In this document: one piece after another, positions 40,504-62,017 of the stretch
Layout: each line of letters opens with the position of its first letter
Position numbering within the stretch: the stretch's first letter is position 1
Origin: Octopus vulgaris
Taxonomy: Eukaryota
Direction: 5' to 3'
Assembly: GCA_951406725.2 (NCBI GenBank)
Contig: OX597833.1
Coordinates: 11,532,001 to 11,596,000, forward strand
Length of the DNA stretch: 64,000 bases
The notes under the pieces: model-generated
Told to the model about the DNA's origin: nothing
The model's database searches: none
Seen by the model: only the letters and a program-made list of their open reading frames with translations
Program-made: the position numbers and the translations under genes

Positions 40504-41000
40504 TCAATATTTACTGCACACAACGCAGGTTAATTGGCGACCATAGACATACGGTGGACATGGTAATGAACCACAAACTCCCTCCACAAAATATAATAAA
40601 GCTCCATTTTCGTCTCTGTAACCCGCTGGATCAGCTTCTGGTGCATAATCCACACACACATATTCATGTCTGCCCTTACTATTATAATGTTCGGTCATCA
40701 AATATCCTGAATATTCAGCTGTCCAACCAGCGTAACACTGTGTCCTGGCTGGTAACATCATAACAACAGCAGGTTGTCGTGTCAAACAGACAGCACACGG
40801 AACGTTGTGATTATCAAGTGATTCAGCGTTAGCAAAAGAAAATATTTTTTTCTCTTGGGAAAATATTTTATATTCACTGCTATATATGTGAGCTCCACCT
40901 GTATATACTTCAGTGTAATTGGCCCAAATGGGATCGTTAGGTAGACATAAGAGATTACTTCCGCCGCCTGTTTCGTTATAAAATGATCCACCAACCACAC
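40504..41000 (-). CDS. Gene C exon 4: C4-like domain
   Basis: Acceptor ctag|GT. Open 497-nt exon with all framework cysteines. Confidence 0.92.
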
Positions 41001-42278
41001 CTAGAATTGGTAAGAACATATCAAATAAATAAAATATTAAGTAAAGTGAAATAAGAAAGACGTGGATTAAAAGAAATCATTGAAAAGGAAATTTCAATTT
41101 TAAATTGGCGATTATATATACACACACATACGACTGTGTGTGTCGATGTGTGTGATTGAGTTTATGTGTGTGTGTGTCTTTGTGTCTATGTGTGTGCGCG
41201 TGTGCGTGCGTCTATGTGTTTGAACATTCACTATGTTTACGTGTGTAGGTTTTGTGTATACAAACTAGTATCGATGCGAGTGTAAGCTGTGTTGCTCAAT
41301 GAATGTTTGTGTCTGAGTTAAGAACTGTATGTGTCTATGATTTATATGTATATATGTTGTAGGTGTACGCCAACGGGTTTGTGTAGGTAATATTTATGAA
41401 TATGTCTAGATACATGGCTGTAGATGGTTGTGTGCAGATGTCAAAAGAGTGCGAAGGGAAGGCCGTTACGTCACGCATTTCCTCTAAAATGGAAAAGACG
41501 ATTTTGTTCAAATTTTAACGGAGATAAAATAGAAGAACGATACAAGGAATTTTTAACCAATATAAAATAGAAGAACCCGGTGAGGTGCAGAGTATTGTTA
41601 GTCGATGGGTAGTTAAAAGTTATTTAACGGAACATCCTGCACAGCGTAGCTGAAACTCTTCGCTAGTCGTGGACAGGTCACGTGAAGATACACGTTATGG
41701 TCACGTTGGCTTTATTTGCTGCATCACTGGGGTTATTTTACGTCTGAAGGAAAGTGAGTGGAGAAAGGATTGTAAGGTTCAGTTTAGGCTGAATTGGGAA
41801 ACCTTTAAGGAAACCGTTAAGGGTTCGGTTATAGACAGGTAAAAGCAAAAGCAAATCTCGTTTAAAAAAAGAAAAGTTGATGGGGAAGAGGTGGAAAATA
41901 GTGTCTTCTGAGTGGAAAGCTCAGAATTGCCTAACCATGAGGCACTAGCGAGATTAAGTGGTGGAATGGTGCGTAGAAAATGCATACAGTCCTTGGGTAA
42001 CTATATTCTGTGGTTTGGTTCATGGGGGTAATTTCGATGATATCCTGTTCGTGTGATCATTCTTGACGGCATTTATACTTCAGCTATGACCAAATAAATT
42101 CAACGGAGAAAGTAGTTTTGTGTAATCTCAAGAGAATCTATAATCGCCGTTTAAAACGTGATATACTATAATAGGACAAACGTTTGTGTAGATCAGAAAG
42201 AAGGAGGGAGAGGGAGAGAGGAAGAGAAAGAGAGAGAAACAAAGAAATAGAGAGAGATTAGAAACAAAATATACTAAC

Positions 42279-42353
42279 CATCGTATACCAGACTGGAATT
42301 ACGTGGACATTTTGTTCTACCCCACCGGGTATACAGGGATCCAGGACCGGGTC
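42279..42353 (-). CDS. Gene C exon 3 (R)PGPGSLYTRWGRTKCPRNSSLVYD(G)
   Basis: Acceptor ttcgcag and donor G|gttagt, 75 nt. Confidence 0.92.
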
Positions 42354-42965
42354 CTGCGAAATTGCGAAGGAAACAATGTAGTTTAAAAGAAAATAGTTGG
42401 TGAACCATGTGGGAGAGAATATCTTGGCTGGGAATTAATGAATTGGGGAGACAAGGATTAGAAGATAGGAAGGAAGGAAAGAAGGAAGGAAGGAAGGAAG
42501 GAAGGAAGGAAGGAAGGACAGATGGAAGGAAGGATAGATGGGAACTTGATAGAGGATTTAAAGAGTTAAGAAAGAAAGAAAGAAAGAAAGAAAGAGAGGA
42601 AGAAAGAAAAAGAAAGATAGAATGAATGAATGAATGAAAAAGAAAGAAAGAAAGAAAGAAAGAAAGAAAGAAAGAAAGAAAGAAAGAAAGAAATTAAAAA
42701 ACAAACAAACAAAGGGTTGTAAATTCTTTTTCCTCTGAACGTAAAGCTGATCCCGAGAAATAGTCCCCCACGCCTGGGGGTGAATGTATACTTTTAGTTA
42801 CTGGTAAAGATTTGCATGATTCATCACTAATTCACTTCTCAGCCGAATTCAATGCGGTTTTTTAGCAATGATGATCGAGTCTTGAGCTAAATTTTTTAAG
42901 ATAAATTAATTCAAGGTTGGAGCATCAAATAAAAGGCAAACCAAAAATTAAATAAAAGGCTAGAA

Positions 42966-59207: not shown

Positions 59208-60742
59208 TGAAAGGAGTAGTTTATAGAGCCAAGGTGCAAGTGGAAGGCTCATCGGAATACAAGACATACACAGGGCTTCAGAAAATTCATTTAAAACAAG
59301 ATTTTATTCTCATAAAAATTCATTTAAATACCCAGAGAATAGGAAGAAAACCAGCCTAGCAAAATATGTCTGGGAACTAAAAGAAAAGGAAGCCCCACCT
59401 TTCAACGTGACATGGAGCATTCTGGACAGGGCGGCACCATACAGGCATGGAGCTTACAAAAATAATTTCAAGTGCAAGCTTTGTCTATTAGAAAAAATGT
59501 ACATCTTATTCAAAGACAATAATTCTTTGAATCAAAGAAGTGAGCTAATGAACTTATGTAGGCACGCGGCTAAATTTAAAATGTCGAATATAAATATACC
59601 ATATGGATAGAGTATATATTTTGTATTTTTGATTTTGATTTTGACTCTTGAAGGATGAGCGCTACGATGGATTTTGTTTTGTTTCAAAACTATGCGGATC
59701 TTAATCCGTATAGCAAAGTCTTATGTTTCTACATATATATTAGGAAAAACCTACAAACTTTGTTTTCATGTTATTGTATTGCATAGGATTACCTTGATTA
59801 TTTATATTACCTTGATTATTTATAAATGACCCAAAATAGGATGCTATATTTTATTTTATATGCCTTTCGTATATATTTTTATTAATGCACGCATTTTTTA
59901 AAAGCAGTGTTTTTAAAAAAAGCAATGTTGTCAAAATTAGAATGTTTATATAAGTATGTGTATAGCAAAGCATATATTTGTAAGCATGCGTATCTGTGTA
60001 TGTGTAAGTGAAAGTATGTTTGTGCTTAAGCACACATATACACAACTGTATGTATATGTATCCATCCAAACTTGTATGTATACTGGTCTATATATGCCAA
60101 TAATACCGTTACACTGCTTGTATACATAATTTTTATTTTTTTATTTTTTCTTATTTCGTTTTTTCCCCACCCCTCCTTCGTTCCTTTTTCTCTCTCTCCC
60201 TTTCTTTCGTTCCCCCTCCTTGCTCAGTATATGAGAATTGCTACATAGATGCGTGCGAGACGGTTTGCGTGAATATATGTATACATGCTTTTATGTGTAT
60301 ATTTAGATTTATATTCAAACGTCTGTATATGGATATATGGCGTTTACGCGCATCCTTTTGTGTATGTTGATAGATATATGTAGATTTTAATATAAATATG
60401 TATTGCAGTATTTATAACAGGTTTAATTTCTATGCATTAATTTGCACTGTCTTCATTAACGTCAATAGGTTTTTTCCTCGGATTTTATAATTTTTATAAT
60501 TTTTATAAGTTTTTTATATATATATACATATATTTTTGACCTTTTTGTTTATCGCTCGAAGATTGACCGTTTTTTCTAAAGGGCCAATCAAACAAGTCCA
60601 TTTCTTTTTAAAGGTGTAGCGTTTGTAAGAGTATAGATTGAATTGATATATCAGTTCCATTCTAGCAAAAACTGTCTGATGAACGGCAACGAGAAACTCA
60701 GAGTTACAGATTTTGTTAAATTTTCTGCTGCTTAAAATAAAG
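59208..60742 (+). repeat. Tandem 5'-truncated copy of the PLE 3' end (equivalent to 57775 onward)
   Basis: Identical ORF tails at 57974 and 59407, offset 1433. Confidence 0.92.
60666..60715 (+). ncRNA. Minimal type I hammerhead in the 3' pLTR
   Basis: Identical to 55828-55877. Confidence 0.72.
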
Positions 60743-61518
60743 TGTATATATATATATATATATATATATATATATATATATATATATATATATACATATA
60801 TACATATATATATATTTATATATATATATATGTATGTATGTATGTGTATATATATATAAATATATATATCTCTCTCTATATAAACGGCAGTTTGTCTCTG
60901 TGTGTTTCTGTGTGTCTGTTTGGTTGTACCCTCACTCGATACTCGCTGGTGATTTAATTTCTTATTGTTGAGCATCAGTGTTTAGGAAATGGTGCAAGGT
61001 GTGAGGGCTACGTGTTCCGGTTATGAGGATGTCAACTAATCTTGTGGTGAGGTCACGAAGATGTATAGACACAGGTAAAAACAAAATAGGTGGTGAGAGG
61101 ATTACTACTTACATTCCTCTCAAAAATGATGGAACCATCATATATTTCTATGATATTACTTCAAGTGGGGTTTATTGATATTTAAGACAGAACTCAAAAT
61201 ACAGTTAAACGAAATACAATTTTATTTCCACATTTTAGTTTTATGAACTGATCCTTATACAATGTTTATCTAGAATTATTCACTCAGCTTTGCATTGTTC
61301 TATAAGCATAATTCTCACATTCTCCGGCGCAGATTTTCTCTCCATTATAATATTTTTCTGTTAACTAGTAGCGCAGAGTATTTTAACAATTTATATAACT
61401 TCGATAAAATATTATCAAACAGAATTTAAAATGTCTATATTGTTTTATGTTATTATATTATGTCTTGTAATTGGTTAACATAAGATTTCATAGAGAAGCA
61501 AACTCAACCATATTCCCT

Positions 61519-62017
61519 TCAATATTTACTGCACACAACGCAGGTTAATATGCGACCATAGACATACGGTGGACATGGCAATGAACCACAAATTCCCTTC
61601 ACAAAATATAATACGGCTCCATTTTCGTTTCTGTAACCTGCTGGATCAGCTTCTGGTGCATAGTCCACACACACACATATTCATGCCTGCCCTTCTCAGC
61701 ATGACCCTCGGTCATCAAATATCCTGAATATTCAGCTGTCCAACCAGCGTAACACTGTGTCATGGCTGGTAACATCATAACAACAGCAGGTTGTTGTGTC
61801 AAACAGACAGCGCATGGAACGTTGTGATCTTGAATTGATTCAGCGTTAGCATAAGAAAAGATTTTTTTCTCATTGAAATAATGTTGATATTCACTGCCAT
61901 ATATGTGACCCCCATTTGCATCTCCTCCAGCGTAATTGGCCCAAATGGGGTCGTTAGGTAGACATAAGAGATTACTTCCTCCGCCTGTGTCGTTATAAGG
62001 TGATCCACCAACCACAC
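61519..62017 (-). pseudogene. Copy D exon 4 with a +2 frameshift in a coding (GT)n run
   Basis: 499 nt instead of 497. TAT GTG TGT GTG TG GAC at ~61663-61680. The downstream frame still reads DYAPEADPAGYRNENGAVLYFVKGICGSLPCPPYVYGRILTCVVCSKY*. Confidence 0.88.

Follow-up and report, generated by a model that had tools for sequence, protein, structure and literature searches.

The spongin or short-chain collagen C4-like domain occurs widely among invertebrates, has neither a solved structure nor a Pfam family of its own, and tends to be classed as a matrix protein. In the sections of the sources consulted (PMC5395295 among them), the spongin-type family is treated as matrix, adhesion or shell protein, and the part of PMC4581086 consulted places a mussel C4-like transcript, together with C1q, apextrin and fucolectin, in the leading group of gill-specific transcripts. 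In collagen IV, the equatorial layer of the NC1 domain serves trimer-trimer docking and chain clipping, as described in excerpts of PMC6211539 and PMC4878091.

Molluscs commonly have expanded families of variable recognition proteins. Their C1q-domain proteins, FREPs, C-type lectins and ApeC proteins combine a trimeric or oligomeric head on a stalk with tandem expansion, birth-and-death evolution and variable ligand-facing loops. MHC peptide-binding regions and plant NLR LRR clusters carry variable patches with raised dN and dS and exchange tracts between paralogs.

Here we analysed a 64,000-nucleotide stretch of the Octopus vulgaris genome (the window) in which paralogous C4-like genes had been proposed to carry hypervariable segments on an invariant framework. 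The reading we favour, with a probability of roughly 0.5, is a birth-and-death repertoire of predicted trimeric recognition proteins, cell-surface or shed, built on an NC1 scaffold with copy-specific loops for external ligands.

A tandem array of collagen-less NC1-like genes

Contig C20 carries about 34 tandem copies of a collagen-less NC1-like gene, and the pattern observed in the window extends to the whole array; the true collagen IV NC1 exons of the same genome lie on C19 and C10. A family gene comprises four exons joined by GT-AG introns, as seen in genes A and C, confirming the assignment of the variable exon as exon 4. Gene A (10527..20924, minus strand, as are all features below) is intact, with exons at 20924-20781, 15447-15396, 12743-12669 and 11026-10527 that encode an open frame of 256 aa. 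Gene C encodes 255 aa, of which exon 1 (52032..52175) supplies the cytoplasmic tail, a hydrophobic helix predicted to be a signal anchor and the start of a helical stalk (modelled helix 16-57, hydropathy), and exon 2 (45547..45598) supplies the stalk end with a basic motif and a flexible linker. RNA contigs connect exon 2, with loose ends, to exon 3 (42279..42353), which encodes the first strands of the NC1-like domain; exon 4 (40504..41000) has an open frame, encodes the remainder of the domain including all variable segments and is 96% identical to the O. sinensis protein P0001. Spliced family transcripts were present in all four runs that were guessed to be RNA; the run labels are coded and name no tissue.

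Many copies in the cluster are broken, with a disrupted exon 4 in at least 9 of 34, and the array includes many pseudogenes. Gene B (24791..30549) is a likely pseudogene, since its exon 4 is open (25288-24794) and an exon 2 lies at about 30549-30496, but exon 3 is 74 nt, one base short, which introduces a frameshift, and a search of the locus found no exon 1. In gene D, exon 4 (61519..62019) is broken by a 2-bp insertion within a dinucleotide run near 61670 and exon 3 (63340..63414) carries an in-frame stop, while exon 2 and a candidate exon 1 fall outside the window (L053, L054). Paralog contigs from the four read runs compared with gene D stack there, masking whether its two lesions occur in other animals. 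A fifth exon 4 persists as a decayed remnant at 7624..7794.

The introns of C and D, described as almost identical by eye, differ by 4.2% and the 3' flank by 4.3%, and the two are not a clean sister pair. Over 446 positions of exon 4, D differs from its neighbour E (L003), the next gene, at 16 and from C at 46, so D is not the sister of C in this exon. Intron comparisons of D and C with E were left out, the E intron being alignable over 100-170 bases only.

Full-text literature searching, with most subscription journals outside its coverage, returned no description of the array expansion. Locus identifiers gave no match in the literature and supplements searched, and the family did not appear in the supplements searched for a brain atlas and for a hemocyte study.

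Hypervariable segments within a conserved exon

All 16 peptides originally quoted for segments 1-4 were located in the four genes, where the segments span 11012-10701 in A, 25273-24965 in B, 40986-40678 in C and 62003-61695 in D, and the segment-2 codons of C and D read as quoted, with the amino acid altered at 7 of 8. Across 25 open exon-4 copies, mean column entropy was 1.68 bits in the 40 segment columns compared with 0.24 in the 126 others, 76 of which are invariant. Variable positions cluster along the exon beyond chance (lag-1 autocorrelation 0.57, permutation P 1e-4), and two subfamilies vary at common columns (16 of 21 overlapping, P 3e-9). The combination of segments is unique in every one of the 32 copies with four readable segments, and the genealogy of segment 4 is decoupled from that of the others.

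The six proposed segments lie where they were placed, yet segments 5 and 6 are minor and hold no site at posterior >0.9. The proposed richness in aromatic residues and histidine is present but modest, at 20% versus 15%, rising to 26% in the columns that vary most. The term CDR-like, in so far as it might imply somatic diversification, found no support; all variable segments lie within one exon of germline paralogs, and the diversity seen, in contigs, is diversity among those paralogs.

The domain is predicted to form an NC1-like trimer

The gene products are type II membrane proteins of about 255 aa with a 10-Cys spongin or short-chain collagen C4 domain, the cysteines of P0001 falling at 81, 109, 159, 162, 179, 206, 233, 238, 249 and 252. 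The membrane anchor and the lack of Gly-X-Y bear out the claim that this is not a structural collagen: none of the 13 N-termini examined contained a run of 4 such triplets, and Pfam Collagen was found in 18 of 111 homologs and in zero octopus rows. When exon 4 and the 111 homologs were scanned, Pfam assigned no family to the domain (the C4 family, PF01413, 0/111), and a profile search of PDB sequences returned nothing below E 0.5.

Collagen IV NC1 accounted for every one of the best Foldseek matches (E 8e-5 to 1e-3, probability 0.91-1.0) and for the leading hit of a VIA structure comparison (Z 7.0, rmsd 5.7, 161 aligned; runner-up 4.8), and the domain matched an octopus NC1 exon at 90% probability. 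HHalign detected an internal repeat (probability 95%, E 3e-8) that pairs segment 1 with segment 4. The whole-monomer TM-score against collagen IV NC1 was only about 0.2, with single repeats fitting better, and in the best full alignments the match extends over two chains of single-chain trimers. A model of the domain folded from one sequence reached pLDDT 31.5 and was discarded. Separately, a weak atlas lead gave a resemblance to ApeC (score 0.79).

A homotrimer is predicted with a score of 0.95 compared with 0.31 for the best of three controls, with contacts agreeing in at least 89% and pLDDT of at least 84, a pass that may reflect memory of solved NC1 trimers. The mark used for this score was attained in a microbial calibration by 21 of the 30 solved pairs and by 0 of the 23 single chains, and in animals by 7 of 16. 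These models suggest that the domain folds like collagen IV NC1, with two repeats, and assembles as a homotrimer.

Placed on this fold, segment 1 (40969..40986 in gene C) would occupy the beta3-beta4 hairpin equivalent to NC1 motif SM1, and its column 6 is among the best-supported selected sites; segment 2 (40882..40914) would form the loop into beta8, equivalent to the NC1 chloride-nest loop; segment 3 (40849..40869; columns 46/47), which has indels among copies, would be the beta8-beta9 loop, equivalent to SM3; and segment 4 (40678..40695; column 108) would be the beta3'-beta4' hairpin, the SM1' equivalent and repeat-twin of segment 1. The expected clustering of variable residues on one surface has support at the level of a layer of the predicted trimer mapped by homology: 36 of 38 columns with entropy >=1 map to the equatorial-equivalent layer (Fisher P 3e-7), a placement made from motif anchors instead of coordinates and with layer borders that we set from Cys and motif anchors and PMC6211539. 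Segments 1-6 thus probably form a membrane-distal equatorial layer equivalent to the docking layer of collagen IV.

Selection and exchange among the loops

The proposal of positive selection was supported in part, and more weakly than first appears. Plain M1a/M2a and M7/M8 comparisons gave 2dL of 134 and 146 with omega of about 3.8, but null simulations incorporating rate variation, multi-base changes and conversion gave 69-184 in 9 of 9 runs. Because null data yield equally large statistics, the plain tests are not diagnostic here and were dropped as evidence of selection; the array is a clear case of standard site models overstating it. Allowing synonymous rate variation in M1a/M2a left a 2dL of 41.9, above all 20 null simulations (0-8.7), and adding multi-base changes reduced it to 21.1. 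Under the strictest model, with free joint rate-by-omega weights, 2dL was 9.5-12.8 (p 0.012-0.050) and about four codons survived. Each subfamily alone showed the signal (38.6, 102.1), while omega pooled over the segments, taken relative to the synonymous rate within those segments, was 1.02 (2.0 in subfamily A, 0.82 in subfamily B).

An omega so close to one is what would be expected under a possible but doubtful alternative in which a matrix or mucus protein was amplified for dosage, its docking role was lost with the collagen tail and its loops drift nearly freely, while conversion homogenises the framework and introns and the divergent loops resist it. The match of null simulations to the plain statistic and the numerous pseudogenes fit this account, as does the doubled synonymous divergence in the loops, where four-fold sites differ at 0.33 compared with 0.13 in the framework. 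When sites chosen in one subfamily were evaluated in the other, models with a raised local rate matched or outperformed omega>1 (raised rate given omega, p<0.05 in 2 of 6 tests; omega>1 given local rate, 1 of 6). Against it, in addition to the corrected test, invariant codons show no increase in synonymous diversity with proximity to the loops (Spearman -0.14, p 0.25). Variable residues evolve 2-4x faster than the synonymous sites of the framework, and in the C subfamily the loops differ at codon positions 1+2 five times more than the intron does. Divergence among nine copies of subfamily A is 5.0% in intron 3, 26.5% at positions 1+2 of the loop codons and 14.9% at position 3; the 1.8-fold excess of positions 1+2 over position 3 counts against free drift, in a partly circular comparison.

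Exchange between copies would be compatible with the same account. Loops move between copies and block trees conflict (AU p 0.0008 and 0.018), and one framework residue common to three non-sister O. sinensis copies and absent from the 25 O. vulgaris copies is a sign of framework conversion. A PHI-like test was not significant on 17 synonymous sites (P 0.30; all 84 sites, P 0.017). A GENECONV-like test identified 11 of 406 pairs with free permutation; with separate permutation of variable and framework columns it identified 0 of 406, and hence gives no proof of long conversion tracts.

Comparison between species is harder to reconcile with free drift. Six tight O. sinensis ortholog pairs show loop changes at 5 of 226 compared with framework changes at 12 of 756. 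The choice of close pairs biases this comparison, and for 13 of the 20 O. sinensis proteins the set holds no partner at 7 differences or fewer. Two ortholog pairs with O. bimaculoides also keep their loops. Such conservation appears unlike that of freely drifting loops.

Alternative roles for the variable face

The position of the loops suggests a further alternative, which we consider improbable, that they set co-trimerisation and the face-to-face docking of trimers between cells or onto matrix, as the variable regions of collagen IV NC1 choose partners. The variable layer corresponds to the one assigned to docking and chain clipping in the parts of PMC6211539 and PMC4878091 consulted, and the loops of established copies are kept across species. 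The trimer prediction brings segment 2 together with segment 5 of the neighbouring chain and segment 4 with the neighbour's segment-1 hairpin. Although predicted subunit contacts are not enriched for variable residues (28 of 38 within or adjoining them, P 0.25), so many lie there that they could tune assembly instead. However, the loops show no recognisable NC1 chloride-nest or Met/Lys cross-link motif, the N-glycosylation sequon at the segment-1 tip of subfamily A would be awkward for flat docking, and gene turnover is high. An elaboration that we rate slightly lower still would have about 25 membrane-anchored NC1 variants with swapped loops act as a combinatorial cell-surface code, whose homo- and heterotrimers accept only matching trimers or targets as face-to-face docking partners; if true, the collagen IV assembly module would underlie a protocadherin-like system of identity or non-self recognition.

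A toxin or gamete role, also raised in the original prediction, found no evidence in our analysis, and a gamete-recognition protein or venom or ink effector in a between-species arms race is very unlikely: an ink proteome contains one family member, by a single unique peptide in 1 of 3 samples (PMC10142993 supplement), whereas tight orthologs between species are 0-7 residues apart with loops changed no more than the framework, the architecture is that of a membrane-anchored protein, and structure and profile comparisons revealed no resemblance to toxins or gamete proteins of solved structure.

Discussion

Under the preferred reading, a repertoire of recognition proteins, birth-and-death duplication would generate the copies, and short-tract exchange between them would homogenise the framework and move loops. 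Diversifying selection would act on a handful of codons at the loop tips, and copies, once established, would keep their loops. Each copy would then show a different loop set on the predicted membrane-distal face, and, given the equatorial placement of segments 1-6 by homology, three chains would make a flat avidity surface with sites common to neighbouring subunits. The putative ligands are most likely glycans on microbial or environmental surfaces, encountered at an epithelium or mucus layer, which is the least certain part of the proposal. The array suggests that the NC1 fold can be a diversified binding scaffold, and it represents a candidate recognition family for the poorly known immunity and cell recognition of cephalopods.

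The array shares its evolutionary pattern with MHC and NLR clusters, with no structural relation and with the octopus data describing paralogs as opposed to alleles. It resembles the expanded molluscan recognition families in pattern, but its fold is unrelated and its binding role is putative. The nearest proteins to the octopus copies carry the database names spongin and short-chain collagen C4, and the octopus domain is likewise an NC1-like two-repeat C-terminal domain homologous to collagen IV. The portion of PMC5395295 consulted gives the spongin family 10 Cys (7 common and 3 spongin-specific), a match to the octopus domain in count as opposed to position by position against that paper's figure, and describes neither HSQ nor a swapped hairpin; HSQ is likewise absent from the P0001 domain. 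The spongin family, however, has a short collagenous domain before NC1 where the octopus proteins have a membrane anchor and helical stalk, and the octopus genes differ further in their array of about 34 copies and in hypervariability confined to loops. With collagen IV NC1 the octopus domain shares the two-repeat fold and loops corresponding to SM1, Lbeta7beta8, SM3 and their primed twins, and it is predicted to form a trimer as well, whereas the long triple helix, HSQ motifs, swapped beta6-beta7 hairpin, chloride nest and Met93/Lys211 sulfilimine pair are absent from the octopus copies, and the docking face that is conserved in collagen IV is, in these copies, the variable one.

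An amplified Octopus family varies at short segments of exon 4

The feature is real: a spongin-type NC1 family, predicted to be anchored in the membrane, is without collagen and amplified in Octopus. The minus strand of the window (C20:11532001-11596000), part of a 2.8 Gb genome, carries four copies (A, B, C and D). Genes A and C each comprise four GT-AG exons with uninterrupted reading frames (256 and 255 aa, respectively); exon 3 of B is 74 nt and its exon 1 was not found within the expected interval, and in D a stop interrupts exon 3 and 2 bp are inserted in exon 4. The original prediction treated C and D as sister copies, which was not supported in exon 4, with D exon 4 nearer to that of the next gene, E (16/446 differences), than to that of C (46/446). 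The 3' flank instead pairs C with E (2.0%), not D with E (5.0%), and because the two regions group differently the flanks provide no clean clock for exon 4. Two exon-1 copies (L053 and L054; contig C20, positions 11607763 and 11613346) sit between exon 4 of D and that of E, and one is therefore orphaned or an alternative start.

Between C and D we observed a long plus-strand frame (window:55845-57923) with RT-like motifs and an endonuclease-like tail downstream, its 3' end repeated in tandem (duplicated parts at 57775-60683); a Pfam scan of the frame gave no match, and we take it to be, probably, a Penelope-type retroelement. Intron 1 of C holds a 625-aa LINE-type reverse transcriptase frame (plus strand, window:48774-50648; RVT_1, E 4e-30), and a minus-strand set of retroelement-like frames with RT-like motifs lies at the window start (204-2804).

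A six-frame genome search returned at least 54 matches. By our count, 34 near-full exon-4 copies and four fragments all lie on C20 at 10.99-11.78 Mb, an interval with 34 exon-1 matches; among the 34 copies exon 4 is open in 25, has in-frame stops in three, frameshifts in five and no start in one. Older relatives (54-59% identity) are found on C2 and C4 and also outside this interval on C20. A second, older four-copy cluster with the same domain (L038-L041, C4:130.85-131.25 Mb) varies at the same loops and misses some C-terminal cysteines. A single exon-4 copy that sits apart on C8 (L022, C8:118874921-118875415) has an open frame, a mutated splice acceptor and a segment 4 identical to that of B. 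Three loci encode true collagen IV NC1, a divergently oriented pair on C19 (3.24-3.61 Mb) and one on C10 (103.8 Mb). The protein search gave 180 matches among 191 candidates (90-289 aa), the closest named being Octopus 'short-chain collagen C4-like' records (96-68% identity), followed by Argonauta, Capitella, bivalve and amphioxus proteins. In the protein tree the C/D/E subfamily has nine or more copies here and one O. bimaculoides relative among the retrieved records; these were clustered at 90%, and other-species counts are lower bounds.

The peptides and codons originally quoted proved correct against the sequence, as did the restriction of variation to short segments (mean entropy 1.68 bits versus 0.24 in the framework; autocorrelation P 1e-4), with 76 of 126 framework columns invariant. 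All six proposed segments exist, yet segments 5 and 6 are minor. Two subfamilies of copies, termed A and B, vary at the same columns (P 3e-9), and segment combinations are all distinct in the 32 copies with four readable segments. An N-glycosylation sequon (window:40975-40983, minus strand) marks the segment 1 tip in subfamily A and is missing from most of subfamily B.

Possible positive selection and exchange between copies

Codon models were run with purpose-written code on the 25 copies with open exon 4, B among them; chosen on this openness, some may be pseudogenes. Site models yielded 2dL of 134 for M1a/M2a (omega 3.8, 11% of sites), 146 for M7/M8 and 119 for M8a/M8, with plain values of 97-111 without the indel segment and 82 with block-wise trees. 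These plain statistics mislead: synonymous divergence in segments is about twice that of the framework (four-fold sites 0.33 vs 0.13; tree-wide dS 4.3 vs 2.1), pooled segment omega is 1.02, and nine null simulations (omega<=1, rate variation, multi-base changes, 0-120 conversions) reach 69-184. Relaxed loops together with framework conversion would be a possible, though less likely, account. Against it, and for the positive selection first proposed from the plain pattern, stands the test with synonymous rate variation modelled, in which the data (41.9) exceed all 20 null runs (0-8.7). This statistic was 21.1 with multi-base changes added and 9.5-12.8 (p 0.012-0.050, df 4) with rate and omega weights free; the strictest null requires ~2.5% of codons at 6-8 times neutral scale, fast codons that are hard to distinguish from selection. 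Columns 6, 46/47 and 108 were retained under every model. At sites chosen in the other subfamily, acceleration was clear (1.5-3.7 fold) but its split between omega and local rate was not. Across nine subfamily A copies, the intron is 5.0% different, loop positions 1+2 26.5% and position 3 14.9%.

Two of the three blocks have conflicting trees (AU p 0.0008, 0.018), and segment 4 distances track the other segments poorly (Spearman 0.16-0.35 vs 0.44-0.70). Cross-subfamily pairs differ at 1/36 bases in segment 4 and at 42-43% in segments 1-3, a likeness that could alternatively reflect a retained ancestral loop; a run-length exchange test gave 0/406 under the stricter null. Seven of 20 O. sinensis proteins have a partner within seven differences and 13 have none, several of the latter resembling new combinations of segments present here, possibly as chimeric gene models. 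Six tight O. sinensis pairs, whose choice carries selection bias, differ at 5/226 loop and 12/756 framework positions, suggesting from these sequences that loops may diversify between copies and then stay fixed.

Variable loops placed by homology in the equatorial layer of a predicted NC1-like domain

Full-length relatives begin with a short, basic stretch followed by a hydrophobic helix (~15-33); a helical stalk with a basic motif at its end and then a linker lead into the 10-Cys domain. Gly-X-Y was not found in them. Their membrane topology is probably type II, and the protein could be shed. With an AlphaFold model built from 111 sequences (pLDDT 86.8, pTM 0.70), Foldseek gave 30 matches at E<=1e-3, all matches listed being collagen IV NC1 (TM ~0.2); exhaustive structural alignment to collagen IV NC1 reached a middling Z (under 8) of 7.0 (rmsd 5.7, 161 residues; next best 4.8). 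The domain is built as an internal repeat, with segments 1 and 4 at paired positions. Best full alignments of the model (m2fc24d12116e) to 6mpx and 8txn take in both the first and the last residues of these single-chain NC1 trimers, a hint that the two repeats are placed like those of adjacent collagen IV chains, not one NC1 monomer. A predicted trimer of residues 36-255 scored 0.95 versus 0.31 for the best of three controls (contact agreement at least 89%, pLDDT at least 84), a score that may stem from likeness to solved NC1 trimers and whose mark is passed by 21/30 solved pairs, 0/23 single chains and 7/16 animal pairs. The prediction agrees with how PMC5395295 describes the NC1 domains of spongins.

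We anchored the domain to collagen IV through shared Cys motifs, with numbering taken from an alignment of octopus NC1 exons to PDB chains; the HHalign match was confident for the middle NC1 exon only. By motif anchoring, segment 1 matches SM1 and segment 4 SM1', both beta3-beta4 hairpins; segment 2 is equivalent to the loop entering beta8, segment 3 to SM3, and segments 5-6 to beta8' and SM3'. In PMC6211539 each of these elements belongs to the equatorial layer, which lies opposite the triple helix and makes a flat trimer-trimer surface, and passages of PMC4878091 and PMC6527180 place residues 74-78 at the trimer-trimer interface. The equatorial-equivalent layer, its borders drawn after the data were seen, contains 36 of the 38 variable columns (entropy >=1; P 3e-7), and the invariant blocks are polar sheets adjoining the stalk. 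Within the predicted trimer, segment 2 of one chain pairs with segment 5 of the next, and segment 4 contacts the next chain's segment-1 hairpin, contacts by which putative binding sites would span chains. An assembly or identity code would suit a docking face but appears unlikely. Collagen IV identity was rejected for the family.

Expression and relation to known systems

All four RNA-guessed runs yielded contigs (at least 90% identity) over exons 3, 4 and the 3' flank that leave intron 3 nearly empty and connect exons 2-3 and 3-4; these may derive from close paralogs of C. The PMC10142993 supplement lists one family member in one ink sample by a single unique peptide, PMC4581086 gives a mussel relative as one of the top gill-specific transcripts, alongside lectins, and PMC6626399, PMC12040131, PMC13093298 and bioRxiv 2025.07.05.662347 class relatives among matrix, adhesion or shell genes. 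A term search of PMC13669787 for collagen found no mention, and PMC8533556 goes no further than citing the 2006 family paper. Full-text literature searches, with most subscription journals outside their coverage, turned up no account of the array.

Collectively, we consider a recognition repertoire with putative ligands the most likely reading of the family, at a probability of about 0.5. The face that varies here is the one conserved in collagen IV, and whereas canonical spongins have a collagen segment, the Octopus array proteins are without one.
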